Shown here: in pieces, positions 9,610-29,400 of the stretch
Layout: every line of letters starts with the position of its first letter
Numbering within the stretch: the stretch's first letter is position 1
Assembly (NCBI GenBank): GCA_902562835.1
Contig: CACEUX010000008.1
Location: forward strand, 3,726 to 67,725
Origin: an uncultured Fidelibacterota bacterium
GTDB lineage: Bacteria > Fidelibacterota > Marinisomatia > Marinisomatales > UBA1611
DNA length: 64,000 nucleotides
Reading direction: 5' to 3'
Translations under genes and position numbers: made by a program
The notes under the pieces: model-generated
Databases searched by the model: none
The model's input: only the letters and a program-made list of their open reading frames with translations
What the model was told of the DNA's origin: nothing

Positions 9610-9636
9610 GGTGGTTGTTATAACCGCCTTTTTTTT
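9610..9636 (+). terminator. Rho-independent terminator after family A copy 2
   Basis: GGTGGTT-GTTAT-AACCGCC stem-loop followed by T8 (9629-9636). Confidence 0.7.
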
Positions 9637-9774
9637 GACTTTATCCAACGTTTTTTAATTTATTGAAAAATATAATTTTTTATTTTAAAGCTTATAATAT
9701 TAACTATTGAGTTTTATATGTGTTTTCAACTATTATTGTGTTAGTCTGAATTGAGAACTACCAAGAGGTTAATC

Positions 9775-10980
9775 ATGAAAAAAGCTCGTTCAATAGCACT
9801 TTCATTTATTACAATCACATTTATTTCTACATTCCTTCCTGCACAGGCACTTGATCACAGGCACATGGCGTTCGAGAATCTACGCATGTCTGTTATGAAT
9901 GCTTCTCAAAGTGGCCAAAATGTTTATGTTGAAGACTTTACAGGTCTTAACTGACCATACTGTCCATCCGCGAGTTTCGCGATTGATACACTTCTAAAAG
10001 AATTTCCAGGTACACTTCACTCAATTGAATGGCACAGTCCAGGTTACACTCCAGATTCTTCTGACTTTTGTCTCCAAACAGAGTTTTACATGAGAGCTGG
10101 TCTATACGGAGTTAGTGCTTACCCTACCACTGTATGGAATGGTGTGCATAATCAGGTGGGTGGAGCCAGTGGTGGGAACTGGGAATCCATATATCCTGGA
10201 TATTTAGAGTTATATCATGAGCATTATGACCTGCCATCTCAATTTCGTCTTGGCATATCAGGTGAATATGAGCCTGGAGATAATGAGGTCAATTTTAGTG
10301 TAGAGATACTAATTGACAACGATATTGATACTACTGTAAACATTGAGAATACCTATGTTGAAGTATTCGCTGTTGAAGATAATATTTATTCCTTCTGGGG
10401 AAGTGTTGGGCAGTGGCATAACGCCAGGAATGTAGCAAGAAGGTACGTCACAAAAAGTGAAGCCAATAAGAATCCAGTTTCGGTAAGCGAAGCGGGACAG
10501 TCAGAGATCTTTGAGCACAATTTACTCTTGTCAGATGCCTGGGAGCATTCAAATGTGAAAATAGTTGCTATTGTGCAACAATTTCAAGGTGAAGGATCTG
10601 ACCATCCCATTACTCAAGCTCAAACAAGAAATATAAATGATCTAGATCCTGATCCGGATGGTGATGAATTGACCTATCTTTATGATAACTGTCACTATGT
10701 ATACAATCCTGGGCAAGAAGATGCTGATGGAGACGAATATGGAGACGCCTGTGACGCATGTAATGGACTTGTAAATATTCAAGGGAATGTAGACCTTGAT
10801 GCTCATGGAGAAAATTTTACTCCGATCATTGGTGTGGCTGATGTTTTAGCATTATCTGATCTTCTTGATGGTAGTGGTCTTCCTCCAAATGATTGCCAGT
10901 CTATAGATATGCTTGAAGATGGAACGATAAATAACTTCGACCTGATAGTATTGGTAGATGTGGTAATGGCAGGAGGCTAG
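9775..10980 (+). CDS. Selenocysteine-containing secreted thioredoxin-fold protein (family A, copy 3) with TSP3 and dockerin-like C-terminus
   Basis: ATG 9775 is preceded by AAGAGG (SD-like) and opens a signal peptide, MKKARSIALSFITITFISTFLPAQA. ORF 9751..9954 and ORF 10090..10980 share a frame and are joined by stop-free sequence after TGA 9952-9954, in VEDFTGLN-U-PYC-PSASFAI. SAYPTTVWNG is cis-Pro-like. DPDPDGDE..NPGQEDADGDEYGDACDACNG is TSP3. Confidence 0.83.
9952..9981 (+). promoter_or_regulatory. UGA(Sec) plus putative bacterial SECIS hairpin (copy A3)
   Basis: The hairpin CGCGA-GTT-TCGCG (9969-9981) starts 17 nt from the UGA. Confidence 0.6.
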
Positions 10981-12138: not shown

Positions 12139-15100
12139 ATGCTGAATAATAAGAAACATCTGTACAAAAGCATCATCACCCTAATGGCCTTTTCTTGTTT
12201 TATTTTTGGTCAAACCGATTTCTCATTCAAAAATATATCAGTCAAGGATGGGCTTGCTGAGAGTACTGTTAAAGTAATTTATGAAGACCAGAATGGTTTC
12301 ATATACTTTGGCACAGAAAACGGCCTCGATGTTTTTGATGGCTATGAGTTTACAAATTATCAAATGAACTCATTCAATGAATTATCAATTCTTGGCAATA
12401 AGATCTCAACCATTTATGAAGATGCCAGTCATATGATCTGGGTTGGCACTGAATTAGGCGTCAGTAAGTTTGATCCATCGAAAAGAGAATTTTCAAGGCC
12501 TATTAAACTTGATGGGGCAGACCTAATTAATTCTGAAACTATTATTGACGACGGTCAAGGTAACATTTATATCAAATTGAGAGATGATGGTTTAGTTTAT
12601 CAGTACAATGGTGTTGATAGTGTATTGACATGTTTTAATTGTTCAGATGAATCAGTCATAAATGATGAGATGGTTACCGTTTTAAGTAAAGATTCTAAGG
12701 GTACTATCTTAATTGGAACCAATACTGGCCTACGCTACTATGATATCAAGTCAAATCGAATTATCAAAGTAGGTGTTGAAGCTGGATTAGATGATATATC
12801 TGTGAATGCCATAGAGCGCGGAGCCAAAAATGATATTTGGGTTGGAACCTCAAATGGTCTATTCAAATTAAATGGTGGTCTAGGTGGTAGTATAGATGTT
12901 TATAGAAAAAATGAACAAAGTACATCAATAGTTTCAAATTATGTTAAAGATCTGGATTGGGATGTAGAGAGAAATGAACTATGGATAGCAACCCAAAATG
13001 GTATTTCTCGTTACATACCTTCAGAGTCAAGTTTTTTTAATATCCAGATGACACCATATGCAGACAGTATAATAGAAAATGATATATCTGAAATACTTAT
13101 TGCAGTTAAATCAGGTCGTTTATGGTATACTACTGAAAATCATTCTGGGCTGAATTGTTTATCGGTGGGAGAGGATTTCGATTCTGAAGGTCCACCTCCG
13201 GCAAACCATTTTGAGCATGACCCCATTGATAAAGGATCCATAGCGGATAATGAGATCAATGATTTTATTGAAGACAAAGCTGGTCATGTTTGGATAGGTA
13301 CGGGACAAAATGGTATCAGTTTCTTTTCCTATGTTAAACCAAAGTTTGTGAACCATAGATATGATCAGGAGAATGAATGGGGTTTAAAGAGTGACAAGAT
13401 ATATTCTATCACTACGCAGAGTGACGGCATGATGTGGGTAGCTACTGGTTTTGGTCTTGAAAAAATTTCATATGATGGTATCAGGGACCAAGAGTATGAA
13501 AAGTCTCTCCTAAATGTCAACTATATAATTGACCTTGAGATCATAAATGATGTGATGTTGTGGGTAGCGACAGATCAAGGCATACTAAAGATCGATACTT
13601 GGAACGATTATGATGCTGAAAATATTATTAGGTTTTCGGAATCAGATAGCCTTCCGCCATCAAGACGAATATCAAATAATCTAGTTCATGATATTTTGCC
13701 CATTGAAGATAAGATCTGGGTTGCCACAGGATCTGGTATGGTGATAATTGATACAACAACTAATAGTGTCACAGATTTTAATTCAGATCTGATCGCAAGA
13801 GTTATTTCAAAGGACTCTAGTGGTAATATTTGGCTTGGAACGGAAATGGATGGACTTTTTAAGATTCCATACGAACTATTGGGCGATATTGAAAAGGGAG
13901 AAGATTTTGAGTTAGAGGGGCATATCTTTGATAAGGCTTTTACTAGTGGTATTTCTTCTTCCCAGATAACTTGTATTACGGAAGATAAAAATGGAGTGAT
14001 CTGGGTTGGTACTAACGGAGGCCTTAATAAGTATATCAGTGAAAAAGATAATTTTGAGCATTATTTTGTTCAAGATGGTCTGCCGAGTAACTATATAACA
14101 GGTGTGCTTGTTGATAAAACTAATGGGTTGTGGATCAGTTCAAAAAAAGGAATTTCATTTTATGACCAGGTTAATTCAACATTCACCAATTACAGTCTTA
14201 CAGATGGTATAGGTAATATTGATTTTCATAGGCATAGCTATGATCAAAGTGCAGATGGAAGTATATTTTTTGGTGGGCCAATGGGCATAACATTGGTCAA
14301 TCCGGCAGAATTACAATTCAATGATTATCAACCACCCTGTTTGATTACTAGACTTAAGAAAACCTATTTTGATGATTCAGTAAAAGAAATATACTCATTC
14401 GATGATTCCGATGGCTCCAATGGGGGAGAGAGTATTTCAACCATAGTGATCGATCATAGAGTAAAATCATTTAGTATTGATTTTGTGGCTCTCAACTATC
14501 ATCAAACTGTAAAAAACCAATACAGGTATAAGTTAGAGCCATTTGATAGGGACTGGGTATCATCTCAAGGGTTACGTTTTGCATCGTATAATAATCTTGG
14601 AAGAAGTACTTATAATTTTATGGTTCAAGGCTCTAACGATGATGGGGTATGGTCCGCACCTGCAAAGTTAGATATCAAATTTACGCCACATCCTCTTTTA
14701 AGTATTTGGGCTTTCTCTTTCTATTCAGTCCTTTTGATCATTGGTATATTTATTTTCATGCGTCACCGTATGCATAAACAAAAATATCAACTAGAGGAAG
14801 AACGACGCATTCAAGAGCTCGAGCAAGCGAGAGATTTTCAAATGTCCTTGATACCGCAAAGCCCACCAGATCACCCTGACTATGATATTGCACTGCATAT
14901 GAAAACATCAACGGAAGTCGGTGGGGATTATTATGACTTTTTTCCACAAGAAGATGGCTCTATGTATGTTGTGTGTGGTGACGCAACTGGCCATGGTTTA
15001 AATGCTGGAATGATGGTCTCTATCACAAAAGCAGGACTCTATGGGTCGGACTTTGACACACCTTCAAGTACAACCACACGTCTGAATAGAACTATTAAGG

Positions 15101-15519
15101 CAATCGATCTTGGTACAACTCGGATGTCTTTAAATATGGCAAAATTTAATAACGGGTCTTTTGATTTCACATCAGCAGGAATGCCCCCGGCATATCTATA
15201 TAAACACTCTACAAAAGATGTAAATGAAATACTTGTTCCGGGGCTTCCATTGGGTTCAATGAAAAAAGCAGATTTTGATTTACATTCTTTTGATCTTGAT
15301 ACAAACGATGCTCTTGTTTTGATCTCTGATGGACTTCCAGAGTGTGTAAACCATGAGGGTGAGATGCTAGACTATGAGCCGGTTAAGGATTGTATTACAG
15401 CAAATGGAAATAAAACAGCACAGGGTATTATTGATTCTCTGATCGATCTTGGCGATGACTGGATGTCGGGTTTAATGAATGATGATGATATTACTCTTGT
15501 GGTAATAAAGAAAAAGTAA
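12139..15519 (+). CDS. Sensor protein: periplasmic two-component-regulator beta-propeller repeats, one TM segment, cytoplasmic PP2C/SpoIIE-type phosphatase
   Basis: 1126 aa. Many repeats of the ..G.IW.GT..GL..(F/Y).. type are typical of regulator propeller domains. A hydrophobic segment (WAFSFYSVLLIIGIFIF) follows. The C-terminus has GGDYYDFF...GDATGHGLNAGMM...DDITLVVI, matching SpoIIE/PP2C motifs. Confidence 0.8.
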   Translation: MLNNKKHLYKSIITLMAFSCFIFGQTDFSFKNISVKDGLAESTVKVIYEDQNGFIYFGTENGLDVFDGYEFTNYQMNSFNELSILGNKISTIYEDASHMIWVGTELGVSKFDPSKREFSRPIKLDGADLINSETIIDDGQGNIYIKLRDDGLVYQYNGVDSVLTCFNCSDESVINDEMVTVLSKDSKGTILIGTNTGLRYYDIKSNRIIKVGVEAGLDDISVNAIERGAKNDIWVGTSNGLFKLNGGLGGSIDVYRKNEQSTSIVSNYVKDLDWDVERNELWIATQNGISRYIPSESSFFNIQMTPYADSIIENDISEILIAVKSGRLWYTTENHSGLNCLSVGEDFDSEGPPPANHFEHDPIDKGSIADNEINDFIEDKAGHVWIGTGQNGISFFSYVKPKFVNHRYDQENEWGLKSDKIYSITTQSDGMMWVATGFGLEKISYDGIRDQEYEKSLLNVNYIIDLEIINDVMLWVATDQGILKIDTWNDYDAENIIRFSESDSLPPSRRISNNLVHDILPIEDKIWVATGSGMVIIDTTTNSVTDFNSDLIARVISKDSSGNIWLGTEMDGLFKIPYELLGDIEKGEDFELEGHIFDKAFTSGISSSQITCITEDKNGVIWVGTNGGLNKYISEKDNFEHYFVQDGLPSNYITGVLVDKTNGLWISSKKGISFYDQVNSTFTNYSLTDGIGNIDFHRHSYDQSADGSIFFGGPMGITLVNPAELQFNDYQPPCLITRLKKTYFDDSVKEIYSFDDSDGSNGGESISTIVIDHRVKSFSIDFVALNYHQTVKNQYRYKLEPFDRDWVSSQGLRFASYNNLGRSTYNFMVQGSNDDGVWSAPAKLDIKFTPHPLLSIWAFSFYSVLLIIGIFIFMRHRMHKQKYQLEEERRIQELEQARDFQMSLIPQSPPDHPDYDIALHMKTSTEVGGDYYDFFPQEDGSMYVVCGDATGHGLNAGMMVSITKAGLYGSDFDTPSSTTTRLNRTIKAIDLGTTRMSLNMAKFNNGSFDFTSAGMPPAYLYKHSTKDVNEILVPGLPLGSMKKADFDLHSFDLDTNDALVLISDGLPECVNHEGEMLDYEPVKDCITANGNKTAQGIIDSLIDLGDDWMSGLMNDDDITLVVIKKK

Positions 15520-15570
15520 TTTATTCTAAGACATAGGTAAGATTGATTGTGAAAAGGCTAATAATAATTA

Positions 15571-16107
15571 TTGCGTTGGTGTCCTCGTTTTTTATCAGCT
15601 CAAGATAAGGTACCGAACATAAGACTTAAAATGATAAACGGTAAATACGCAAAATTATACGATTTTCTCAAAGAAGGACCTATGATAATTGATTTCTGGG
15701 CAACCTGGTGCGAGCCATGCAAAAAGCAAATGCGCTATTTAGACCTTTTCTATAATCATTTTAAACCATCTGGGTTTAATGTCCTCACGGTTAATACTGA
15801 TTCACCAAAAAGTATGAGCAAGGTAAAGCCTTATATTCGTACAAAAGGTTTTGAATTCAATGTTGCCGTAGATCCAAATAGCCAGGTGAAAAAGAGACTC
15901 AAAGTACAGGAAATGCCTACAACGATAATTATTGATCAGGATGGTTCAATATTGTATCGTCACAAGGGCTATGTTCCAGGCGATGAAGTTGGTATTCTAA
16001 AGGCTGTAACTGATATCCTTGATAAAAAAGGTATAGAATATCTACCTCTAGACCTCGATAAAGTCCAAGCAGTAAAGAAACAAGAGAAACTTAATATTGA
16101 TTTTTAG
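15571..16107 (+). CDS. TlpA-like thiol-disulfide oxidoreductase (Cys form), apparently frameshifted from its signal peptide
   Basis: FWATWCEPCKKQM active site and MPTTIIID cis-Pro. It is a close paralog of 19382..19960. As listed it has no signal peptide. A signal peptide (GTG 15549, MKRLIIIIALVSSF) lies in the neighbouring frame, across a T6 run at 15588-15593. Confidence 0.75.
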   Translation: MRWCPRFLSAQDKVPNIRLKMINGKYAKLYDFLKEGPMIIDFWATWCEPCKKQMRYLDLFYNHFKPSGFNVLTVNTDSPKSMSKVKPYIRTKGFEFNVAVDPNSQVKKRLKVQEMPTTIIIDQDGSILYRHKGYVPGDEVGILKAVTDILDKKGIEYLPLDLDKVQAVKKQEKLNIDF

Positions 16108-18385
16108 AATATACAATTTGACCAAGCTCCTTAATAGTACGCTTTTCTGTTCTGGAATCTTATTTACAACATTAGTCAATGCACAAATAAGTACAGGAGG
16201 AGATGCTTCACTTAAATTTGGTGAGAGTAAGAATAATTTTAATTATTCTGAGGTCTTATTAAATATGAATGTCAGCAATGATTACCTAACAACATGGTTT
16301 CAGTTTGAATATAGTAACCCTCCTGAAATTGGCTTAACTAAAAATGGCTTAAGAAAGTTTAGGGTAGATTATGTTGGAGATAATATTGAACTTTCTGTCG
16401 GAGACATTTACAAAATATGGGGAAGGGGACTTATCCTAAATCAATTTGATGACCAAGATGTAGACTTAGATAATGGATATAGGGGCTTAAGTTTTGGACT
16501 GATAGAAAATGATTATTCATTAAATCTTATTGCAGGTAATTCAAATATATCTAACATTACTTCTGATTATATGTATGACCTCGATCTTGAAGTTCGAAAG
16601 CCAAATTATTTTCCAAAGCATTCCTTATTTGGTGGCGATTTTGAGTTGTTCCGTGGTCCGGTATCTTTTGCAACATCTTTTTTGCAAAGTCGTGAGAGCC
16701 ATCCTATCAATGCTGGTATGCAACCAGATAGCATCGATGTTATTCACCGAATACATGGGCTAAGAAGTGGGTATGAAGGAAACTCATTAAGTGGGTATGT
16801 AGAATTGGCAAATAAATTAACTCTTCTACCCACATCTATGGGAAGTGATGATCATGAAGATTTTAGACCTTATAATGGAACCTCTTTATTTGCAAATCTG
16901 AATTACTATTTTAACATGTCACCCTTTGATGGTTGGTCACTCATGATGGAGTATAAGAATTACAATACTACAAAGATCAATCCAGACCAAAGGAATAATT
17001 ATGTAAATAATTATGACATGAATTTGATCTTCACTCAACCACCTACAGTGATTCGTGAGCATAGTAGTGTATTGCTAGCAAGGCTGATTCCGCAGGTCAA
17101 TTTCAATGACGAGGTGGGCTACCAACTCTCACTCGTAGGCCCAGTTAGTAATCTAGGGTATTTTACTCTTAATTATCAGGCTGCCAGCAGGACCAGCTTA
17201 TGGGCAAAAGAATTTCCAGATACTGTAAACGCGGCATTTAGTTCAAAATGGAGTGGCGATAGTTCTATAACTTATTTACCATATGATGATGATGTCACGT
17301 TTCCTTATAATGAGTTGTATGTTGAAATGGAAGGGTATATCAATAAGATACGATATCAACTTGGTTTAGGCTTTACAAATAAAATATCTGAATACCATTC
17401 TCTCTATAGTAGTGCTCAAAATAATAGCTGGGACATAGGTGAGTTATTTACAGATCTTAATAATAGTGGTACATGGGATCCGGGTGAACCTTATGATGAT
17501 CTATATAGTATTGTAAATGAGAGATTAGAGAATAAATATACCAATGCTGTCACAGTACCAACGTTGTTTAATTATAATCTGGGAAATGGATTGAGCATCG
17601 ATCTCAAATATGAGTACCAAAGGTTGAAAAGTGGTGTTAATTATAATTTCACATTGTCATCGGATGAGTACTTCGAAGATCTTGATGGAGATGGCTTATG
17701 GGATATGGCAGAGTTGTTTACTGATGATAATGAAAATGGTGTGTGGGATGATGCTGAAGAAACTTGGTATGATAATTGGTTGAATGGTTGGATTTCTGAT
17801 GACCTTTTACCAAATTATGACACGAATGGCAATGGTGAATATGATATTGGAGAATATTTTTCTGATGCAGATGGTGATGGTATTTGGGACCCCGCTGAAG
17901 CTTTCACTGACCTTGATGGTGATGGAATATGGGATGATGGAGAGGTCTTGGACGATATGAATAATGATGGTGTATGGACACCAAAAGGAACTTACGTAGA
18001 TAGTACAAGATCTAACTTTTATGCCTATGATGGCGATAGCGATGAAAAGCTAGCTCAAGAATTTCAAAATAATCATATGTTAACAATTGGTCTTGGAAAG
18101 TCACCTTATTGGTCTTTATCATTGACCATAGAATCAAGTTCAGCGTACGAATATGGACCTCAACCTTTAAGCATCTCTAATCCACTTGAAGATCTACTTG
18201 GCAACATTATGGATATGGAAAACAAATGGGTGGCAATCGACCTTATGATAAATATCAACTCAAATACACGTCTTGATCTTATGTATGGGACTTTAAGAGG
18301 TGGTGTCATTTGTAGTAATGGTATTTGTAGATATGTTGAACCATTTGATGACGGATTCAAGCTAAGTTTGACCTCAGTATTCTGA
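16097..18385 (+). CDS. Putative large outer-membrane beta-barrel protein (paralog 2) with Asp-rich repeat insertion
   Basis: 762 aa. It shares N-terminal (WFQFEYSNPPEIG...LILNQFDDQ) and C-terminal (GG.ICSNGICRYVEPFDDGFKLSLTSVF) blocks with 6349..8325 and ends in Phe. It overlaps the upstream TlpA-like gene by 11 nt. Confidence 0.65.
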   Translation: MIFRIYNLTKLLNSTLFCSGILFTTLVNAQISTGGDASLKFGESKNNFNYSEVLLNMNVSNDYLTTWFQFEYSNPPEIGLTKNGLRKFRVDYVGDNIELSVGDIYKIWGRGLILNQFDDQDVDLDNGYRGLSFGLIENDYSLNLIAGNSNISNITSDYMYDLDLEVRKPNYFPKHSLFGGDFELFRGPVSFATSFLQSRESHPINAGMQPDSIDVIHRIHGLRSGYEGNSLSGYVELANKLTLLPTSMGSDDHEDFRPYNGTSLFANLNYYFNMSPFDGWSLMMEYKNYNTTKINPDQRNNYVNNYDMNLIFTQPPTVIREHSSVLLARLIPQVNFNDEVGYQLSLVGPVSNLGYFTLNYQAASRTSLWAKEFPDTVNAAFSSKWSGDSSITYLPYDDDVTFPYNELYVEMEGYINKIRYQLGLGFTNKISEYHSLYSSAQNNSWDIGELFTDLNNSGTWDPGEPYDDLYSIVNERLENKYTNAVTVPTLFNYNLGNGLSIDLKYEYQRLKSGVNYNFTLSSDEYFEDLDGDGLWDMAELFTDDNENGVWDDAEETWYDNWLNGWISDDLLPNYDTNGNGEYDIGEYFSDADGDGIWDPAEAFTDLDGDGIWDDGEVLDDMNNDGVWTPKGTYVDSTRSNFYAYDGDSDEKLAQEFQNNHMLTIGLGKSPYWSLSLTIESSSAYEYGPQPLSISNPLEDLLGNIMDMENKWVAIDLMININSNTRLDLMYGTLRGGVICSNGICRYVEPFDDGFKLSLTSVF

Positions 18386-18507
18386 TTTAATCAAAATAAT
18401 AAGAATTATTTCTAAAAAGAATTTTGCATTAATATTCGTATGAAAAATTTTATTAATGTAGCTAAATTTCATTCGCAAATCATAACCCAAAATAAACTCT
18501 CAGAAAT

Positions 18508-19374
18508 ATGAAGCAGCTCATTTCAATATTGATAATACCATTCTTTCTTAGTATTTCACCACTTGATGGTCAAGATGTTTACATGGAAGATTTTAGTGTA
18601 CCTATATGTGAAAACGGTAATGGAGAAGATACTCTACACTTTTTTGAAGCATATAATGGTGCATATAACGATTGTGGTTACAAGGTGATATTTGCCACTC
18701 TTTTTACCTCCTGGTGAGGATACTGCTGGGGGGAGGCTCCCCTCACACAGCAGTTATACGACACATATAATGACCAAGGCCTTGAAGTGGTTGCATTTGG
18801 AGCTGATTGGGGTGAGCCATATACTTGCCAACAGTGGATGAACTCATTTGATATTACATATCCCATTGCTGACTTTGAGACTGGCATGCCTAATTGGTAT
18901 CAAGAGGATATACCTATCAATCTACAGATGCATCAAATAGGTTGGGGCCTACCTTACAATATTATTATAGACCATAATATGGAGGTCATCTGGGGGGGCG
19001 TAAATGACATTGCTGAGGAAGAAGTATGGGAAGAGGCTGTTACAATGATAGAAAGTGCTCTGAATCATTTGAATGCGGAGGCACTCGTTGATAATGATGG
19101 GGATGGTATAGCTAATGAATGTGATGATTGCCCTGACTCACATCTATATACCTTAGGAAATTTTGATTTTTCAGAAGAAATCGTAGTTGATGGTCTTAAC
19201 TTTGTATATGCCCCTAGCATAGAAGTTTATGATCTACTTTTCCTTTCAGATCTAGTTAGCAGTGGTGATGAAATTTCACCATGTTATATTGAGGCGAGTG
19301 ATTTTACTGGTGATAATGCTCTGGATTTAATTGATATAATGGCTTTAGCTAGCTATATAGTAGAGGGTAATTAG
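18508..19374 (+). CDS. Selenocysteine-containing TlpA-like thioredoxin-fold secreted protein (family B, copy 2)
   Basis: ORF 18508..18717 (signal peptide, ..ATLFTSW) and ORF 18787..19374 are in frame. TGA 18715-18717 gives W-U-GYC-WGEAP, with stop-free sequence between the two ORFs. GLPYNIIID is cis-Pro-like. DNDGDGIANECDDCPD is a TSP3-like repeat, followed by a dockerin-like tail. Confidence 0.8.
18715..18744 (+). promoter_or_regulatory. UGA(Sec) plus putative SECIS hairpin (copy B2)
   Basis: GGGGA-GGC-TCCCC core (18730-18742), extendable to 18728-18744 with one G-U pair. The offset from the UGA is 15 nt, as in copy B1. Confidence 0.55.
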
Positions 19375-19381
19375 AAAAATC

Positions 19382-19960
19382 ATGACCATTAAGGCTCGAT
19401 ATGATATGCTTAGAAAGATATTTTTTTTTACAATGCTCTTTACATTGGCATATTCGCAAGGCAAGGTTCCAAATGTACGTCTAAAAATGTTAGATGGTAG
19501 CTCAGCCAAACTTTATGATTACCTCAAAGATGGGCCTATGATCATTGACTTTTGGGCAACTTGGTGTGAGCCATGTAAAAAACAGATGCATCATCTAAAT
19601 AAATTTCACCAGCATTTCAAAGATGCTGGATTTAAGGTTCTTACTGTTAATACTGATACTCCAAAAAGTATGGGCAAGGTGAAATCATATATAAGGTCAA
19701 AGAAATTCAAATTTTTTGTAGCTGTAGATCCTAATGGTCAAGTAAAGAAAAAATTAAAAGCAGAGCTCATGCCGACTACGATCTTAGTTGATACGGATGG
19801 CTCGGTGCTTTATCGTCATCAGGGGTATTACCCAGGAGATGAAGATAAAATATTAAAACATATCACGGACTATTTTGATGCAGCAGAAATAAGCTATGAC
19901 CCATACGATACTGAAAAGAAAAAACAGACAGCTAAAAAGCAAGTAGATATAGATTTTTAG
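19382..19960 (+). CDS. TlpA-like periplasmic thiol-disulfide oxidoreductase (Cys form)
   Basis: 192 aa with signal peptide (IFFFTMLFTLAYSQG), FWATWCEPCKKQM and MPTTILVD. It starts 8 nt after the family B Sec gene. Confidence 0.85.
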   Translation: MTIKARYDMLRKIFFFTMLFTLAYSQGKVPNVRLKMLDGSSAKLYDYLKDGPMIIDFWATWCEPCKKQMHHLNKFHQHFKDAGFKVLTVNTDTPKSMGKVKSYIRSKKFKFFVAVDPNGQVKKKLKAELMPTTILVDTDGSVLYRHQGYYPGDEDKILKHITDYFDAAEISYDPYDTEKKKQTAKKQVDIDF

Positions 19961-20040
19961 ACGAATATATCGCTGTTTAGATCCCTACATATAGATTTCA
20001 AATAAATTAAATATTTAATGATGCCCATTATTTTTAATAT

Positions 20041-20114
20041 GCGCCCGTAGCTCAACTGGATAGAGTGTCTGGCTACGGACCAGAAGGTTGGGGGTTCGAA
20101 TCCTCCCGGGCGTA
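20041..20114 (+). tRNA. tRNA-Arg (anticodon ACG)
   Basis: 74-nt cloverleaf folded by hand. Acceptor GCGCCCG/CGGGCGU (G1-U72 wobble), D-arm GCUC..GAGU, anticodon stem UCUGG/CCAGA with loop CUACGGA, T-arm GGGGG-UUCGAAU-CCUCC. CCA is not encoded. Confidence 0.88.
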
Positions 20115-20124
20115 CTTATCGACA

Positions 20125-20152
20125 AACCCTTCTTTTTAGAAGGGTTTTTTTG
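20125..20152 (+). terminator. Rho-independent terminator after tRNA-Arg
   Basis: AACCCTTC-TTTTTA-GAAGGGTT (8-bp stem) running into a T-run (20145-20151). Confidence 0.8.
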
Positions 20153-20193
20153 TTTGATGGAAGTTTCTATCACAATAATATCTGATTAATAAA

Positions 20194-21474
20194 ATGAACA
20201 AAGAACAAATAAATAAATTCACCTGCAAATTTGAGGATAAGGAATTAGAGCATGAATTTCTCCTCACACGATGGAATAAGGTTTGGACTTACATAAAGAT
20301 TCTCCTTTATTTTAATGTGCCTCTGGGATTTATGATAAGGATAGATGATATTTTCATTCGAGGTGCGGGAATGAATCCGTATTATCTTGCTTATCATGCA
20401 TTTGCAATTATCCTTCTGATCGTTTTTCTCATCTCCTCAAATCAAAAGAAACGAAAATATCATCAGGCTTACTTTTTAGTTGAAGCAATAGGGTTTATGA
20501 ACTGTGGAGCTTGGACTTATTACTTTTCTGATATTCAGTTTCCAGTAGGTGCCGGCGTCATTCCAAATATGATAATGATATATCTTGTTATTTTTCCATT
20601 CAATTTAATTAACGGTGTAATTGCCACTCTCGGCACTGCAATTCCTTTTGCTTTTCTTGTTATATCGGAAGGCAATATGACACCGGATCAATTGTCTTAT
20701 CTTTTCATTCTTCCCTTTATTTTCCTTATAATGAATAAACACAGCAGAGAAATAGATTATAGAAGAGACTTTTTTCAAAACAAGAACCTAGAATTAAATC
20801 GAAAATTGATGCAACAAACATTAAAACGTTATTTTGGGGAGAGACTTACGGAAAAAATGTTGGATAATGAAGGTGAGATTCAAGGTGATAATATTTGGGT
20901 TTCCATATCATTTACAGACATTGCAGCTTACTCAACTATTATCGAACATATGTCACCTGAGACAGCTGTAAAATTCCTAAATGAGTATTTTTCTGCAATG
21001 CATGATGTCATTGAAAAACACAATGGACAGATTATCAATTATATTGGTGACTCTGTTATGGTAGTATTTGGTGCTCCACAAAAGTTAGAAGACCACGAAA
21101 TAATTTCTGTTAAATGTGCTATAGAAATGAGAGAGAAGTTATCTGAATTAAATGCCAGATGGGATGGGACAGAATTCTCAAGATATTGGAAGAATCATGG
21201 CATTGATGGAATAACAGCAAGAACCGGAATACATACCGGAAGCGTCATTGCTGGTAATATTGGTAGCGACAGAATGTTACAATATAGTACAATTGGTGAT
21301 ACCGTTAATGTTGCTTCAAGGTTAGAGCAAAGGAATAAGGAGTTCGGTACTAGCATACTTTTTTCACAAAAGATATATACATCTCTTACAAAAGATCTCT
21401 ATGATAAATCAGAATATCAGGGAGAGATAAGCCTAAAAGGAAGAGACACAAAAACAAAAACATATAGTATTTAG
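20194..21474 (+). CDS. Membrane-anchored class III adenylate/guanylate cyclase
   Basis: 426 aa. The N-terminal half has about 6 hydrophobic segments. The C-terminal half has VSISFTDIAAYSTI..., NYIGDSVMVVFGAP, GIHTGSVIAGNIGS and YSTIGDTVNVASRLE, which are canonical class III cyclase blocks. Confidence 0.85.
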   Translation: MNKEQINKFTCKFEDKELEHEFLLTRWNKVWTYIKILLYFNVPLGFMIRIDDIFIRGAGMNPYYLAYHAFAIILLIVFLISSNQKKRKYHQAYFLVEAIGFMNCGAWTYYFSDIQFPVGAGVIPNMIMIYLVIFPFNLINGVIATLGTAIPFAFLVISEGNMTPDQLSYLFILPFIFLIMNKHSREIDYRRDFFQNKNLELNRKLMQQTLKRYFGERLTEKMLDNEGEIQGDNIWVSISFTDIAAYSTIIEHMSPETAVKFLNEYFSAMHDVIEKHNGQIINYIGDSVMVVFGAPQKLEDHEIISVKCAIEMREKLSELNARWDGTEFSRYWKNHGIDGITARTGIHTGSVIAGNIGSDRMLQYSTIGDTVNVASRLEQRNKEFGTSILFSQKIYTSLTKDLYDKSEYQGEISLKGRDTKTKTYSI

Positions 21475-21617
21475 ATTGATTGTTTTTATTTCATGTCTAT
21501 CAGCTTAAATGATATTTTTCAAAATTAGGTGTAAAAGCTTTTCAGGCCTTTTTAAAAAGGGTTTTTTATTAGAATTTTGTATATATAAACATTAGATTAT
21601 CGTCAGGAATTCAATCC

Positions 21618-22409
21618 GTGAAAATTAAACTAATCATCACATTATTTTTAATGACGCTTTCTAGTGCACAAGTTTATGATGTGGGCGATTTTGCACCATC
21701 CGATTTTGGACTTCCTTGGTGTGGTAATAACCCAGCTGGTGATGATAGTTTATTTTTGAGTGCATATAATGGAGCTATCAATGAAACAGGCCGTCCCTAT
21801 GTCATATGGTTGACTGCTTTTACAACTTGGTGAGGATATTGTTTGACGGAGGCTCCTGTCACTCAAGAATACTTTGATCTCTATGCTGATTCAGGATTAG
21901 TTGTGATTGGAATGGGAGGCGACTGGGGCCAACCTTACACCTGTGAAGGGTGGGTAGACAACTTCGGTTTAGGTTACCCTATAATATCTGATGAGGATAC
22001 CTACAATGAATATGAATATGGAGGTTTAGGAACTAATTTATTTACAGATACTTGGGTTCCATATAATATGATAATAGATCATACAATGGAGATAATCTAT
22101 TCGTCATCTGATTATTATGGTCAGGAAGGATATGACCTAATTTTCGATAAGCTCTTTGGCGCCTTAAATAAATGTACTCTATGCACCTGCTCAGAAGTTC
22201 TTGGAGACATTGACCATACATATACCATTGATAATGAACCTATCATTAATATAATGGATTTGTTAAGGCTCTCGGATCTTATTACAACGGATACGCGAAT
22301 GAACCATTGCGAGAGAGGGCAGGGAGATATTACTGGAGATGGTGTTTTGAATACGATCGATCTTTTTGCTTTTGCAACCATGATCTCAGAAGGTGTCTTT
22401 GATAACTAA
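21618..22409 (+). CDS. Selenocysteine-containing TlpA-like thioredoxin-fold secreted protein (family B, copy 3; dockerin-like tail only)
   Basis: ORF 21618..21833 (GTG start, signal peptide, ..LTAFTTW) and ORF 21843..22409 are in frame. TGA 21831-21833 gives W-U-GYC-LTEAP. WVPYNMIID is cis-Pro-like. The C-terminus GDITGDGVLNTIDLFAFATMI is dockerin-like. I see no TSP3 repeat. Confidence 0.78.
21831..21860 (+). promoter_or_regulatory. UGA(Sec) plus putative SECIS hairpin (copy B3)
   Basis: GGA-GGC-TCC core with a possible bulged U and outer GAC/GTC pairs (21845-21860). It is weaker than copies B1 and B2. Confidence 0.4.
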
Positions 22410-22435
22410 AAGAGTTTTATATATCATTTCTAAAT

Positions 22436-22460
22436 AGCCTCACTTCGTGGGGCTTTTTAT
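22436..22460 (+). terminator. Rho-independent terminator after family B copy 3
   Basis: AGCCTCAC-TTC-GTGGGGCT stem (with one G-U pair) followed by T5 (22455-22459). Confidence 0.7.
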
Positions 22461-22644
22461 TTCTAGTATTATTATTTAATAAAGAAAAAACACTTTTTTT
22501 ATTTAAATATACATTCTATTTTAAATTTGCCTACGACATAGCCCTGTTCTTATATTTAGGTGAGTCATTGTACTCACGAGGTAAGACAAAAATTAATTAA
22601 CAGCTGGTAGCTACAGGAGTAGTCTATCAAATGCGGAGTTCGAT

Positions 22645-23427
22645 ATGAGGGAAAGATCACATATTTCCATCCTAATTCGTGCTACACAGTTTTTTCTGTG
22701 GGCATGCCTTTCAGTTTTTATACTCTTACCATCCCCTGACCTCTACGCCCAAGATCCAGAAGATGATGTAGAAGAGTATTGGGGCGATGATGACGAGTAC
22801 GAAGAATATGAGGATGAAGATGAATATCTTGATGATGATGAGTATGAAGATGATGAAGAATATGAAGATGACGAAGAATATGAAGATGATGAAGAATATG
22901 AAGATGACGAAGAATATGAAGATGATGAAGAGCTATCAGATGAAGCAGAGAATCTAGGCTATACCATCGACCTAGCTTTAGGGTCACCCAGGTTCGTCAA
23001 TCCAGCTCTGATGAACTGGAACTCAAATGTTGACCTGAGAGCAAGCGTTGAGTTTCCCCTCCTTATGCAAGTCATGGGTGCAAGATTTCGTTTTGGTGCT
23101 GAGGTTGGTTCTTTCAAGTTTGAGAATGCAAAGTTCAGTACTGTTGGCGACGATGTAATTAATCTTGGAGAGACCTTTAGCGGTATAACAGCAATGGGTA
23201 TCATTGCTTTTCCTGCTGGTCCAGGAAAGATCAAATTTGGTGTTGGCATGGTTGGCTCTTCAGCTGGATTCTCAATGGAGGCATCCTATGGTATTAGAAT
23301 CGGCACGCTTGAGGTAAGAGGAGGAATACGTTCTACCGAGACCTTAATGGCAAAAACATCAGAGTCTGTAGAATTGGGTCGTGCAGGTTGGATGGATGGT
23401 CAGATCGTTCTAGGAGTCAATCTCTAA
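22645..23427 (+). CDS. Secreted protein with poly-acidic (E/D/Y) repeat region and C-terminal beta-strand-rich domain
   Basis: 260 aa with a signal-like N-terminus (FFLWACLSVFILLPSPDLYAQ). About 70 residues are almost exclusively D/E/Y. The final 160 aa or so have an alternating hydrophobic pattern compatible with a small beta-barrel. Confidence 0.65.
   Translation: MRERSHISILIRATQFFLWACLSVFILLPSPDLYAQDPEDDVEEYWGDDDEYEEYEDEDEYLDDDEYEDDEEYEDDEEYEDDEEYEDDEEYEDDEELSDEAENLGYTIDLALGSPRFVNPALMNWNSNVDLRASVEFPLLMQVMGARFRFGAEVGSFKFENAKFSTVGDDVINLGETFSGITAMGIIAFPAGPGKIKFGVGMVGSSAGFSMEASYGIRIGTLEVRGGIRSTETLMAKTSESVELGRAGWMDGQIVLGVNL
22846..22931 (+). repeat. In-frame 18-bp tandem repeat (about 4.7 copies) encoding EDDEEY
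   Basis: GAAGATGA(T/C)GAAGAATAT is repeated head to tail. The units alternate GAT/GAC at the third codon, so the period is effectively 36 bp. Confidence 0.9.
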
Positions 23428-23433: not shown

Positions 23434-26400
23434 ATGTTTATAATTAAAAAAATATTATTTTATTTTATGAGCACCCTAAACAAAAGAAACATTGTTTCTA
23501 TGTTAGTTGGTATACTGAGTTTTTCTCAGCTAGTAGCTGCAAGTATTGATATCAGATTATCCAATAATAATACCTTTGGTACAAGTAGTCGTGGGGCATA
23601 TAATATTGATGTTTCGAATACAGATAATGGTGGTGTGACAGGTGGTATTGTTGTTTTGATCACTGATGCAACGGTTGACCATGATTACAAAGTATATGTG
23701 CAATATCATACTGGGGCTCCTGCTAATTCGAATCAATGGTTTTCACAGCAGATCAATGAGGCAGGAAATACAAAGATATCGATTGGAACAGATGGTACCG
23801 CTACTCAATATATTCCTCATGCTGCTATTGAAGCTTCTGACGATTGGCAAGGAACTGATTATGATGGTAATGTGACCTGGATCATTGTGAATGATGATCT
23901 TGATGATGATGACGAGCCTAATACTGCGAGCGGCACACAACATTACGAGACATATGATTTTGATATGATCGCACCGACCATATCAAATCAAACCATATCG
24001 GCACCTAAAGATGCTCCTTTCAACCAGACCTATCCGCATTATGCTAAGGAAGGTGACCAGATCAAAATGACATTTACCTCGGACGAAGCTATTAGCACTC
24101 TAACAGGCAACTTTCATGGAAATAGCAATATCTCAGCACAAAATTTAGATAGTACGTCTCCTTATGTTACTATAAATGCAGTCAATACCATGCCTGATGG
24201 TTCGACGGTCACGTTCAGTTTTATTTTAAAAGATTCCAATGGTAATTCGGCAACCATTTCATCAACGGAAAATAGTTCAAGCGTAATCACAGACTTTACT
24301 GCGCCTGATATAAATAATGGTACAACATACTATACATCTATGGTTACTGGAAATGGTGATTATTTTGCTAAAAGTGGTGACAACGTTGTACTGTCGATTA
24401 AAGCAAGTGAGACCCTTGTGCAGGGTAATTTTGATAATAATAATGCAACTGATGAAAGTGCCTACATGGTTTTTAATGTGGGTACATCAACGAATGTCAC
24501 AGTCACTCCAGCGCTTTCCGGTATCGCAGGCAATAATAGCTCAGAGTTTACTTCCACAGTGACGGTAACAGATGACAATGAGACTTCAAATACCTATGTA
24601 GATTTTTCGATTACAGGTATCTATGATAGGGCTGGAAATGAAACAGCTATTACAGATGATGTACCGACCATCAATGATCGTGTATACTATGATAGTACCG
24701 ACCCAACCATTGAAGAAATGTCCCACTCAACACCTGCCAGTAATGCTAATCCAAATCCATATCGAGCAAAAAATGGAGATGCTATAAAACTGACATTTGC
24801 TGCTAGTGAATTATTGGATTACAACTGGGATGATAATATTAATACACAACCAGCCCTGACATTCCAAGGTGGTGGTGGGAGCGGTAATTCATTTAATGCA
24901 AATACTATTGCAAGCGTTAGCAATCTGCAGAACTTTACTGCCACTCTTAATGATGTTGCTGGCTTATCAGAAGGTCAATTGAATTTCTCATTAGCTTTTA
25001 GAGATCGTTCAGGAAATCAAGCTTCAGCTCATACTGCATTGACCAATGAAGGTACTAGAATAACGATTGACAACAGTGCTCCTACGATCGATAATCTAAC
25101 GGTTGCATCTAATTCAACAAGTAATACTGCATTTGCCAAGCCAGGTGAGAGAGTAACGATTTCTATTGATGTGAATGAAGAGCTACGGAATTTATCGCAA
25201 TATGAGATCACAGATTATGATGATGGAGTGGCAGGGACCATAGGTGGGATAGAAGCAGAGGCGACCATGCAGGGAGGAACTGGTGGCCAGGTTTGGATCT
25301 TATCAGCGATCATGGGTGATTCACATCCCGAGGGACTATTAGAGTTTTCAGCAACATTGACCGATATGGCAGGTAATACTAAGGTTGTGACTCAGGCGGA
25401 TATTACTTCAGGTACTTCAGTTACCTATGATAAAACAGCTCCGACCATTGTTAGTGCATCGATACAGTCAAATAATATTAACCCTACTTGGGCAAAGGAA
25501 AATGAAGTAGTAACACTTATTTTTGAAGTGAATGAGAATTTAAAAGAAGACCCCACTGTGTCTATTGCTGGTGGCGCTGCCACAAAGGTGGGCGTGAATG
25601 TGCGAACCTACACCTATACTATTACTGTGGATTCCGATGACCATGAGGAAAATATTCTTGACACAAATCCAAATACAAACTTCACAATTGATTTTACAAA
25701 TGAGGCAAATATAGCTGGAACCCAATATACTCACGCGAGTGATGGCGTTGATGGGACAGTCACTATAGATTATACTCCACCAACTCTAACAAATGTTTAT
25801 ATAAAATCAGATAATACTGTTGATACATCCTATGCAAGATCTGGTAGCAATGTAACTCTTAAGTTTAAAGGCGTTGATGCACTTAGCTCTGGTTTATTGA
25901 GAGATGATCTTATAGTGACATTTGATACGGGTGCTGGTGGGGCCAGTTTGAATGCAACTGAAAATGGGGATAATACAAACGCGAGTTGGACCGCAACCGC
26001 CGAAATGGGAGCAGGTGTTCTTGAACAAGACCTAACGTTTTCAATCGCTGGTTTTAAAGATCTAGCAGGTAATGTAGGGACTACAGTGACTGATTTGTCT
26101 GGTGGCTCTCAGCTCACCTATGATCAAACAGCTCCTACATTATCTGCTCTTACAATGGCTTCTAATAATAGTAATAGTAACCAATTATCCAAGGTTGACG
26201 ATGCCATTACTATGGCAATAACTGTTAATTCAACGGTTGAACCTAATGGAATACAGTTACCAGTTGTTACCATTGCAAATAGATCATCAGCGGATGGAGA
26301 TGTTACTATCAGAAATGCTGCAAATGATGGGAATGCTAGTCAGGGAGATCTAGTATTTACAGCTAATTATACGATGCAGGATGCCGATACAGAAACTGAT

Positions 26401-29400
26401 TCCGTAGAATTTCAGGTTGCATTTACCGATCTAGCGGGAAATGTTGGAACAGCGGTAACCTCATTGGTCAATGATCGTGGGGTAAGTTTTGATAAAACTG
26501 CACCAGATTTTACCAATACAGCCATTAACTCAAGTGTAACCATTACATCTGATAATGGGAATGGTGATCCTACCATTGCTACAGTTAATGACGTTATTAC
26601 TCTCACTCTTACATCTGCAGAGGCACTTAAGGCAGCTACAAAACCAATTGTAACTATACTGGGTGTAAGCGCGACTGTAGGTGCAGATGCAGATAATAAG
26701 GTATTTACAGCAACGCATACTATCACTGGTAATGAAACGGGTATCACTAATAACCAGGTCATCTATTTTAATGTTGACGCTGGATATACAGACCCAACAG
26801 GGAATACTGGGTCTGCTATCACTCAGGCAGCAGCTTCCTTTGCAAATGCTACACTTCGTTCTACAAATGGGTCTTATGTCCTTTATGATATTACTGCGCC
26901 AGTTTTTGACCCTGTCAGGATCAAGTCTAGTAATGCCAACGACTCAACTCTGGCCATAGCAGCTGATGTTATTACTCTTACCATGATATCAGATACGCCT
27001 ATAAAAGCAGCTACTAAGCCAACAATATCTATTGCTGGAAACGTGATCCCAGATGATGATATTACTAGAGTTGGAAATACAAAGTTTGTAGCTACTTATG
27101 CTATGCAAAATAATACAAATGATAATACTTATAATGATCCTGATATAGTCATTCCTATCTCCGTAACAAATTATGATGATGCAGCGGGTAACACAGGGAG
27201 CGCTGTAACCAATACCTCTGACCCTACCAATAGTTATGTTGTGTATGACAATACCAATCCAGACCTACAGCAGGTGACCATTGCCTCAAACCTTGATGAA
27301 GATGATCCCTCTTTGGCTATCCCAGGTAGTACCATTACACTTCAATTTATAGCGGATGAGGTGGTTCAGGAACCAACTGTAACGATCGTGGGTAGACCCC
27401 CTGATAATCTAACTGGTTCAAACGGTAACAAAACATGGACAGCGACTATTGTTATGTTGGAGGATGATAGTGATGCTGCAGACCCCATACCATTTGCCAT
27501 ATCTTATTCTGATCTGGCAGGGAATAATGGTAGCGCCTATGATCAGACTGGAACTACAGATGGCTCTAGCATTAGTTTTGATAAGACAAAGCCTACACTT
27601 AGCGCTATCTATATGGTTTCTGAAAGCTCTGATAGTAAGGATAGTACTTATATAAACCCTGGTAATAATCTTAGTATTCGCTTTAAAGTAAGTGAGCCAC
27701 TCGCAGCATTGGATATTTATATGAATGCTACAAATAGAGGTAGATACCCCACTGTTGCTGATGACGCTATAACGATCACAAAACTTACGGAATGGAATGG
27801 TACATTTGAAAAATGGAAAGCGGTTTGGCCGGTAACTGATGGTACGGATGATGATGATGGTGCAGGGGTTGTCATACCTTTCACAATTGACTTTACAGAT
27901 CTAAATGGCTACAGTGGAGACCAGGTTACTGAGACCACAGACGATGTCTATGTGACCTACGATAAGACTGAACCCAGTGTTCAAGTATTTACCTACCTTT
28001 CAAACAACAATACAACTACTCTTGCGAAAGCAGATGATATCATCACGGCTAGTTTAACTGCTAGTGAACTGATCCAGCAACCCTCTATCAAGATAAGTAC
28101 TGCTTCAGTAGATGAAAGTGCTGGCGATACGGATAGATCATGGACAGCTACCAAGACACTAAATACTGATGATGTGGAAGGGCAGGTAGAATTAAAATTG
28201 GTCACATTTAAAGATTATGCGGGCAATGTGGGTAGAACGTCAGATATTAATAGGACGACAACAACTGACGATCTATATGTCACATATGATAAGACAAAGC
28301 CTGTCCTAACAAAAGTGAATGTATACAGTGACAACAACTATAGCAGCAATACAATGGCCAAAGTACAGGACATTGTTACCATTGAAATTTCAACGGGTGC
28401 TGATGGTGAGCTCATTTCTTCACCAACCGTTAGTATGATCGGTAATACACAAGATGTGACTGTCACTCCTAACACCCCTAATGCAGTCAGTGACCAAACA
28501 TGGTTGGCATCAAAGACGGTTGTTACAAATCATTCTGAGGGTGAAGTTGTATTCTCAATTACCTGTACTGATCTTGCAGGTAACGAGAGTGATGCGGTTG
28601 CTGTCTTGACCAATGACACAGATAATACAAATGTCACTATTGACAGAACAAAGACCGACCTGTCTGGATTGACCTTGGATATGGTCAATGATTCAGATAC
28701 GGGTATTCAAGCATATGATGAAGATGGCAATCTCAATTGGGTTGGTAAAACTGATAACTTGACCAGTGTACAGGCACCGACCTTTAGCATATCTGGATTA
28801 ACAAGTACTGCAAGTGCATCTGGAGACTCCATATACCTTATTATAGATAATGGGACCGCAATCGATACAACTATAAGGTCTAAGGTCAATGCAAATGAAA
28901 TGAACTTTACTGTTCCTTCAGATCTTCCAAGTCAACTTACGGCATATTCTGCAACAATTGTGACTAAGGATCCGGCAAATAATATTTCTGACCCTACTAC
29001 AGTTCTTAAGTTTAGGATAGATACGGATCCACCAGCATTAGGAAATGCTCCAGACCTTATAGCCACACATGATACGGGATTTGCAGATGATGATAATGTG
29101 ACAAACAATAGAAAATTTACTTTAGAGCTCGCAGGATTGGTCGCAAATAAACAAAATGTTATTGATATTTATTATGATGCTGAATCAGCAGGCGTAGATA
29201 ATTTTCTTGTAGTGGCTGATGTTATGATGGAAGTAGACAAGGACACTCCTTTAAGAGATGGGTCAGATACAATTTGGGTCAGTCGTTCTCTCCCTGATGA
29301 TGAGTATACCTTTAGTTATACTGTCACTGATTCTGCGGGGAATGTCTCCGCTAAGAGTGCTACCACTGTTATTACTGTTGACAGAACGGTGCCATCTACG

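Follow-up and report, generated by a model that had tools for sequence, protein, structure and literature searches.

When a gene for an exported selenoprotein is followed almost immediately by one for a cysteine-type thiol-disulfide reductase, do the two encode a dedicated couple of electron donor and acceptor, or do they belong to something larger? This question is raised by a 64,000-nucleotide stretch of DNA (the window in what follows) from an uncultured ocean bacterium of the phylum for which the names Marinimicrobia, SAR406, Neomarinimicrobiota and Fidelibacterota are used alike. The window represents C8:3726-67725 of a 1.84-Mb metagenome-assembled genome that is 78% complete. The two genes, SelB1 (18508-19374) and TlpA2 (19406-19960), lie back to back on the + strand, and a first-pass annotation had taken them for a couple in which a periplasmic reductase recycles a tethered selenoprotein. 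We assign a probability of about 0.5 to a different reading, namely that they close, as its final two cistrons, a unit of four genes for thiol-redox chemistry in the envelope, in which TlpA2 would act as a second, non-exclusive reductant.

The window holds three 'family B' selenoprotein genes, SelB1, SelB2 and SelB3 (the gene of the elongation factor SelB is written selB), and three TlpA-type reductase genes, TlpA0, TlpA1 and TlpA2, numbered in the order of the window; the Omp28-related selenoprotein genes (NF045500) in the same locus are referred to as family A. The selenoprotein family was searched for in 301 genomes of the phylum and was recovered in 79 of them. Regions of up to 20 kb were collected around 40 family hits, and the locus protein classes were mapped in these by tblastn. 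Genomes are indicated by G-numbers and loci by L-numbers. The genus of the window comprises three genomes: its own, the sister genome G251 ('bacterium TMED46', 96% complete) and G271.

Gene order and the proposed transcription unit

All genes between 4689 and 23434 around SelB1 and TlpA2 are found on the + strand. The proposed unit is headed by TlpA1 (15549-16107), which encodes a Cys-type TlpA/ResA reductase (WCEPC; Pfam Redoxin, 80 bits). Its 3' end is overlapped by 11 nucleotides (nt) by barrel1 (16097-18385), the gene of an outer-membrane barrel of the DUF6029 family (PF19494, 82.9 bits). SelB1 follows after 122 nt and TlpA2 after another 31 nt (19375-19405), and no hairpin or terminator-like structure was found at the SelB1-TlpA2 junction. 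As the first-pass annotation had described, the pair is followed by a gene for tRNA-Arg (ACG; 20041-20115) and a strong intrinsic-terminator-like hairpin with a T-run (20124-20157, the hairpin itself at 20124-20147; -16.1 kcal/mol, z = -4.2), both on the + strand, and its suggestion that the pair lies at the end of a unit is supported by these two boundaries. We infer that TlpA1, barrel1, SelB1 and TlpA2 are co-transcribed. A downstream unit headed by TlpA2 and including SelB2 was considered as well and ruled out, as the tRNA-Arg gene and the terminator lie in between. The terminator is strong in the strain of the window, but it has decayed in G251, and G271 does not have it. An Rfam scan of 15000-23000 returned tRNA only. 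In many families of the Marinimicrobia tRNA-Arg(ACG) follows the module, frequently accompanied by tRNA-Gln and tRNA-Glu. The boundary that tRNA-Arg sets to the locus is therefore old, and TlpA2 is inserted between the selenoprotein gene and this boundary.

Across the phylum, the conserved order is not that of a back-to-back pair but that of a TlpA gene, then a DUF6029 barrel gene and then the selenoprotein gene. More than half of the selenoprotein genes (28 of 53) are positioned directly after a DUF6029 barrel gene, that is at a distance of 150 nt or less, and 24 of these 28 have a TlpA gene ahead of the barrel gene, with three more cases being cut by contig ends. DUF6029 was present in 73 of the 79 genomes with the selenoprotein family, as against 102 of the 222 genomes without it (counts not corrected for phylogeny). 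A TlpA gene directly behind the selenoprotein gene was encountered in the genus of the window (the window itself, G251 and G271), where it is an additional TlpA, and in a second lineage (L059/L102 MED648, L100, L101 SP173, L103 LRMED-178), where the only TlpA gene of the module has been relocated behind SelB and none is found ahead of the barrel. These rearranged loci thus retain a TlpA gene within the module. The link between TlpA and the selenoprotein is real and old, and its conserved form is a triad with the barrel in the middle. A narrower alignment search returned loci of Marinimicrobia only, and does not constitute a test of the distribution outside the phylum.

The gene order bears directly on the proposal that the periplasmic TlpA2 specifically recycles the tethered SelB1 encoded just upstream of it, in a dedicated one-to-one couple. 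Part of this proposal stands: both proteins are predicted to be exported and share the ResA/TlpA fold, one with selenocysteine and one with Cys, and the synteny with the TlpA family is phylum-wide. The tight spacing without a terminator in between is in line with such a couple, and so is the stability of the arrangement in the genus and on eight independent ocean contigs, on which the SelB1-TlpA2 order is identical. In addition, the second lineage has a TlpA gene right behind SelB, and the SelB1 proteins of the genus lack a sorting domain of the type IX secretion system (T9SS), so that they could stay periplasmic together with TlpA2. The exclusive character of the couple is not supported as proposed. 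The conserved unit includes the barrel and has its TlpA gene at the front, whereas the adjacency to a downstream TlpA gene occurs in only 7 of about 43 genomes, restricted to the two lineages. Other short forms of SelB have no TlpA gene downstream (L040, L041, L047, L061, L069), and the nearest TlpA2-type genes outside the genus (G137, L099) are conserved without an adjacent barrel or selenoprotein gene, SelB1 included. Moreover, the operon is already headed by TlpA1, which is 64% identical to TlpA2 and has the same tail. Considering these points, we regard a dedicated couple as unlikely. A correlation between short SelB forms without T9SS domain and the presence of a downstream TlpA gene proved inconsistent, given that the second lineage has long forms and that several short forms have no TlpA gene downstream.

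Selenocysteine decoding and fold of SelB1

SelB1 is a genuine selenoprotein. Its open reading frame (ORF; 18508-19374, 288 residues) is open only when the TGA at 18715-18717 is decoded, which yields the motif W-U-G-Y-C with selenocysteine at position 70 (U70). Among 53 family genes, from 41 loci in 36 Marinimicrobia genomes, the corresponding column W-[U/C]-x-x-C contains TGA in 46 cases and Cys in 7. Every TGA-bearing copy possesses a hairpin of the selenocysteine insertion sequence (SECIS) type, CGGAGGCUCCG, at 8-40 nt after the UGA, with its centre GGAGGCUCC about 15-27 nt past the UGA, and the Cys forms are devoid of it. In the window the hairpin (18722-18754, + strand) consists of an apical stem GGGGGA/UCCCCU around a GGC loop and a lower stem ACUGCUG/CAGCAGU beneath. 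Within a set of 44 distinct sequences, pairing was retained in 82% of the cells, compared to 33-46% with slid partners, and compensatory changes were found at 4-5 pairs. The covariation score of 0.255, compared to 0.04-0.12 for slid controls, was reached by none of 500 shuffles. The hairpin site encodes E-A-P, and some of the Cys forms keep E-A-P using other codons; therefore, the constraint at the nucleotide level is specific to the selenocysteine forms.

Genes for tRNA-Sec and selD were found in the genome of the window, whereas selA and selB were not found in this 78%-complete assembly; in the 96%-complete G251 both are present, adjacent to each other. The column of 46 TGA and 7 Cys, the covarying hairpin, tRNA-Sec and selD together confirm the selenocysteine-type gene that the first-pass annotation had read at this position. 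The selD gene itself (G000:C5:72141-73067) has an in-frame TGA, and thus codes for a SelD of the selenocysteine-containing type. A genetic code in which TGA specifies Trp, or a division of SelB1 into two separate ORFs, was considered and ruled out. The DUF6029 gene immediately upstream of SelB1 (16097-18385) terminates at TGA as an ordinary stop, which shows that TGA is not a Trp codon in this organism, and the selenocysteine/Cys column, the hairpin and the selenocysteine machinery speak against both options as well.

In public collections, the family appears as C-terminal fragments that start past the UGA (P0003, P0012, P0029 and P0004-P0028 were examined) or as complete proteins in which Trp takes the place of selenocysteine (W-W-G-I-C, W-W-P-S-C), i.e. 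translated with TGA as Trp. A family member of the lipoprotein type, with an LSC lipobox, was observed in an Arabian Sea genome (L097:7857-8462). It has two consecutive in-frame TGA codons (TGG TGA TGA CCC TGC, W-U-U-P-C) followed by the usual hairpin, and its closest relative (L096) has TGA GGA at the equivalent site.

According to Pfam and NCBIfam, the redoxin domain of SelB1 is ResA/TlpA-like, and TlpA2 is placed in the same superfamily. A profile search of PDB sequences gave ResA, TlpA and DsbE as best matches (E = 1e-15 for the ResA entry 4nmu), and an AlphaFold 2 model (predicted local distance difference test score 72) aligned to ResA and DsbE structures with target-normalised template modelling scores of 0.73-0.82. 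The residues that are invariant in the family are C33, W69, U70, C73, E76, W101, Y105, C106, W109 and the cis-proline P148, counted on the 288-residue protein (one tool listing numbers several of them one higher, with C34, C107, W110 and P149). They include an extra Cys pair, C33/C106, next to an active site, U-x-x-C-x-x-E-A-P, that represents the ResA/CcmG-type signature. SelB1 scored 22 bits against NF041054, the ResA-like WAxxUGC selenoprotein, where 300 are required, and its W-U-G-Y-C motif, with selenocysteine at the first position of the CxxC, is unlike the WAxxUGC of that family. Judged by eye, the N-terminus (MKQLISILIIPFFLSISPLDG, followed by Q) reads as a Sec-type (general secretory pathway) signal peptide.

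The C-terminal 95 residues (19084-19371) form a TSP3/dockerin-like module of calcium-binding type that is common to the other selenoproteins of the locus and the NF045500 proteins (model positions 295-376, E = 6e-10). The module shows helices at 240-285 in the AlphaFold 2 model and gave weak matches to Dockerin_1 and TSP_3 in the orthologues. Nevertheless, SelB1 is not a member of NF045500 (GOS_C), since the score for the whole protein was 39 bits, derived from the C-terminal module only, versus a cut-off of 200. A cohesin-like protein with T9SS domain that could be the partner of the dockerin-like tail was looked for in the own genome, using the long orthologues. Their middle domain gave no significant match there, and the sorting-domain part alone matched, recovering at least 25 T9SS cargo genes.

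The nucleotide identity between 18429-19928 and L039 of G251 is a mosaic of 85-99% per 300 nt. The synonymous divergence (dS) from G251 is around 0.10 for SelB1, and 0.42-0.60 for the flanking TlpA1 and TlpA2. The low value for SelB1 and the mosaic identity suggest recent recombination across the selenoprotein gene.

TlpA2 and its paralogues

The ORF at 19382-19960 passes the Pfam cut-offs for Redoxin (89.4 bits), AhpC-TSA (85.8 bits), Thioredoxin_8 and Thioredoxin, which upholds its earlier designation as a Cys-type TlpA-like gene with the motif WCEPC. The sequence W-C-E-P-C-K-K is the exact active-site motif of ResA (C62-E-P-C65 in the numbering of the 192-residue ORF, codons 19565-19576). 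Matches in the PDB were to DsbE, ResA and TlpA structures (E = 1e-20 to 1e-12), and the orthologue of G251 carries the NCBI name 'TlpA family protein disulfide reductase'. On basis of the fold and the W-C-x-x-C motif, TlpA2 is predicted to be a thiol-disulfide reductase of the TlpA/ResA/DsbE family. Against the model for ResA proper (NF002854) it scored 90.8 bits and did not reach the cut-off of 170, and against that for rhizobial TlpA (NF047696) its 63 bits fell far under the cut-off of 230. No cytochrome c maturation genes were found at the locus.

The first-pass annotation had counted 7 nt from the TAG stop codon of SelB1 (19372-19374) to the ATG at 19382, and this count is correct for that ATG. 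In the eight ocean contigs, however, the frame of the upstream ATG runs into a stop codon, and the start codon of the gene is the one that corresponds to ATG 19406 (M-[LF]-RKI..., with an 18-residue signal peptide), and most gene callers give the corresponding 184-residue form. The spacer is therefore most likely 31 nt. The N-terminus of TlpA2 (MLRKIFFFTMLFTLAYSQ, followed by GK), which is conserved in relatives, reads by eye as a Sec-type signal peptide, so that the assertion that SelB1 and TlpA2 both have such a peptide agrees with our inspection. The signal-peptide region (19401-19430) contains a T9 tract (19421-19429) behind two ATGs in different frames (ATGATATG). One extra base is present in G251 (L039; C + T9), where the gene is annotated from the other ATG, and the ocean contigs read C + T8; the variation may be noise in the length of the homopolymer, or the tract may be subject to phase variation. 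The ratio of nonsynonymous to synonymous substitution (dN/dS) of TlpA2 is 0.04 versus G251 and 0.05-0.06 for deeper pairs, equal to that of TlpA1. Given this strong purifying selection, TlpA2 is a working gene and not a decaying duplicate.

In a maximum-likelihood tree TlpA2 falls inside the TlpA1-type clade (support 100/99), the genes of which adjoin a gene for a regulator with SpoIIE domain. Within the bacterial family, the TlpA1- and TlpA2-type proteins share a Lys-rich C-terminal extension ending in [LV]-x-I-D-F (tail regions 16030-16107 in TlpA1 and 19880-19960 in TlpA2, the latter ending in VDIDF), which the TlpA0-type proteins lack. The alternating pattern of this tail and its terminal Phe are like the beta-signal of outer-membrane proteins. 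TlpA2 is a paralogue of the operon-leading TlpA1 that arose within this family. Had TlpA1 and the barrel gene been duplicated in tandem, remains of a second barrel gene would be expected behind TlpA2; these were looked for, and no homology was found past the stop codon. The nearest relative outside the genus, in G137, is 84% identical; it lies directly after the regulator gene with no barrel or SelB1 gene next to it, and L099 is arranged alike.

This relationship could also mean that the adjacency is merely historical, TlpA2 being a duplicated general reductase with unrelated clients, such as apocytochrome c, a Sco-type copper chaperone or methionine sulfoxide reductase. TlpA2 has kept the ResA-type WCEPC motif, TlpA paralogues are scattered across the genome, and in G137 the TlpA2-type gene survives without a neighbouring selenoprotein or barrel gene, all of which would be in agreement with such a general role. 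On the other hand, all TlpA1- and TlpA2-type genes that were found sit inside or at the edge of a selenoprotein locus, G137 still has four family A genes and SelB3 just upstream, and the module keeps a TlpA gene through its rearrangements. We therefore consider unrelated clients improbable.

The state of TlpA1 in the window offers yet another explanation. A T-run at about 15585-15590 is one T longer (T6) than in relatives (T5), and this puts the codons for its signal peptide (GTG 15549...) in another frame than the ORF at 15571-16107. In G251 and three ocean contigs the run is T5, and the signal peptide (MKKLII..SAQ, then DKVP) is intact. The T6 may have been introduced by the assembly, or TlpA1 may really be inactivated in the strain of the window. 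Supposing the latter, the +1 frameshift would have cost TlpA1 its signal peptide, leaving TlpA2 as the sole exported reductase of the operon and making the pairing a compensation. The difference between T6 in the window and T5 in G251 and the ocean contigs, with the signal-peptide codons out of frame, is in line with such a back-up function. However, a one-base homopolymer difference in a metagenome assembly is most simply explained by an assembly error, and genomes and contigs with an undamaged TlpA1 (G251, G271 and the ocean contigs) possess TlpA2 too, so that TlpA2 predates any defect of TlpA1. A role of TlpA2 as mere replacement is therefore very improbable indeed.

Electron flow, compartments and wider significance

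The genome contains one DsbD-type gene, with a DsbD_TM domain in a 683-residue frame and a C-terminal thioredoxin domain. For the four-gene unit, we infer the direction of electron flow, the partners and their compartments as follows. The inner-membrane DsbD would pass electrons to the TlpA proteins, and these would keep the UxxC selenoproteins of the locus (SelB1 and its paralogues) in the reduced state, either by reducing them directly while they are periplasmic or, for surface-exposed selenoproteins, by reducing them through the barrel. TlpA2 would then be a second, though not the exclusive, soluble periplasmic reductant of the module. A precedent for the proposed transfer is the reduction of the thioredoxin-fold protein ScoI by TlpA, the complex of which (PDB 4txo) is among the structures matched by TlpA2.

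The compartments differ within the family. Of the 28 barrel-adjacent orthologues, 16 are around 500 residues long, and those scanned carry the T9SS sorting domain Por_Secre_tail (PF18962) above the Pfam cut-off. At least 25 proteins of the own genome have a T9SS sorting domain. Considering this domain, the long SelB orthologues should be located on the cell surface, whereas TlpA, as a small soluble protein with a signal peptide only, should be periplasmic. Por_Secre_tail was not found in the SelB1 of the window; like all its paralogues in the genus, this protein lacks a sorting domain and ends in the dockerin-like module. A separation into different compartments, which would speak against a donor/acceptor couple, is thus suggested for about half of the barrel-adjacent orthologues and not for SelB1 itself.

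Several observations weigh against the proposed unit. A TlpA that stays in the periplasm should have no access to the T9SS-tagged orthologues, unless during their export or via a putative relay, and the T9SS data weaken a simple periplasmic picture of donor and acceptor for the family at large, although such a picture is possible for this genus. G137-type genomes keep a TlpA2-type gene without adjacent SelB1 or barrel gene, and at least two further TlpA paralogues occur elsewhere in the own genome, which makes the assignment of clients to the TlpA proteins tentative. Furthermore, DUF6029 is far commoner than the selenoprotein family (175 versus 79 of the 301 genomes), and around one quarter of the family members have neither a TlpA nor a barrel gene alongside.

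The relay just mentioned is suggested by the barrels. A C-x2-G-x-C pair, around 22 residues ahead of the C-terminal Phe, is invariant in all 33 barrels sampled (loci L039-L076). The consensus G-G-x-x-C-[SDTN]-[NS]-G-[IV]-C precedes the terminal Phe or Leu in each of them (8200-8325 and 18260-18385 in the window). One may imagine a thiol/selenol relay across the outer membrane, in which TlpA, reduced by DsbD, hands electrons to this Cys pair and from there to T9SS-displayed or dockerin-tethered selenoproteins, with the ..V/L-x-I-D-F strand docking TlpA1 and TlpA2 on the barrel and TlpA2 acting as the second docking reductant in the genus. We regard this relay as doubtful and rather speculative. 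Barrel1 is around 100 residues longer than barrel0, by inserted repeats D-x-D-G-D-G-x-W-D / N-x-N-G-x-W-D (17400-18000), and this insertion may form a calcium-binding-looking extracellular loop, possibly related to the calcium-binding dockerin-like tails. In the sole DUF6029 literature that we found, the family was likened to Wzi-type barrels and polysaccharide export was suggested (PMC9603273), which is an alternative role for the barrel.

The remainder of the locus, all on the + strand, consists upstream of a family A selenoprotein gene (start 4689), TlpA0 (start 5844), the DUF6029 gene barrel0 (start 6349), two more family A genes (starts 8400 and 9751; the three together span 4689-10980), SelB3 (U-PSC, start 11059) and a gene for a regulator with propeller and SpoIIE domains (start 12139). 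Downstream of the terminator are found an adenylate cyclase gene (start 20194), SelB2 (U-GYC, start 21618), a gene for an acidic protein (22645-23427) and one for a 4306-residue Ig-repeat protein with T9SS tail (23434-36354; Big_13 eight times, the T9SS tail being borderline). In the acidic protein, a long N-terminal stretch of poly-(Asp/Glu/Tyr) precedes a C-terminal half that is rich in beta structure, and its family is conserved downstream of the module throughout the phylum (matches in at least 20 loci). In some ocean variants of the population (L107:3106-3699 and L109:2265-2858) the adenylate cyclase gene is absent, and around 415 nt downstream of TlpA2, where the window has tRNA-Arg, lies a gene of redoxin type that is probably the part of SelB2 past the UGA.

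The nearest known systems are those in which CcdA reduces ResA (Bacillus subtilis) and DsbD reduces CcmG/DsbE. They share with the locus the W-C-E-P-C-K-K motif and export signal of TlpA2 (best PDB matches DsbE and ResA), a SelB1 redoxin domain that is closest to ResA/DsbE and in which U-G-Y-C-W-G-E-A-P keeps the pattern C-x-x-C-x-x-E-x-P, and a DsbD-type gene in the genome. The locus is unlike them in having no cytochrome c maturation genes and a TlpA2 that misses the ResA cut-off (90.8 versus 170 bits), in that one partner has selenocysteine and a dockerin-like tail, and in that a DUF6029 barrel gene stands between reductase and selenoprotein in the conserved order. Reduction of another thioredoxin-fold protein by a periplasmic TlpA, through thiol-disulfide exchange, has its precedent in the TlpA of Bradyrhizobium, which acts on ScoI/CoxB (1jfu, 4txo/4txv) and matches TlpA2 at E = 3.6e-13, although the putative client in our case is a UxxC selenoprotein of ResA/TlpA fold and not a copper chaperone. 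The 'Omp28-related selenoprotein' (NF045500, GOS_C) has the TSP3/dockerin-like module, the UxxC motif and the locus in common with SelB1, whereas its catalytic domain differs.

Since 2005, catalogues drawn up from marine metagenomes have listed UxxC thioredoxin-fold selenoproteins of TlpA, redoxin and 'Prx-like' types (PMC1088965; review PMC13188914). By their descriptions, these resemble SelB1 in having selenocysteine first in the CxxC, a TlpA/redoxin-like fold, Cys homologues and an origin in marine surface and mesopelagic bacteria. In the portions of these catalogues that were searched there is no mention of gene neighbourhood, TlpA partners, dockerin-like tails or T9SS signals. Likewise, the genomic coupling of TlpA, DUF6029 barrel and selenoprotein and the dockerin-like/T9SS tails were not encountered in the parts of the literature covered by our search. 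The back-to-back pair of SelB1 and TlpA2 is a lineage-specific variant of gene order within this cassette and introduces no new principle; it adds little beyond the cassette, which holds the greater interest. For annotation, it is relevant that entries for the selenoprotein in public databases are either cut short at the UGA or have Trp wrongly placed at the selenocysteine position.

Extracytoplasmic reductive pathways that run from DsbD or CcdA to TlpA, ResA or CcmG are well established, and to our knowledge the clients identified for them all reside in the periplasm. Throughout this marine phylum, synteny ties a TlpA-type reductase to selenocysteine-containing ResA-like proteins, in many cases predicted to reach the cell surface, and to outer-membrane barrels of an uncharacterised family. 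The locus thereby provides a testable entry to the question how abundant ocean bacteria keep the selenoenzymes of their surface and envelope reduced, and what the targets of these enzymes are.

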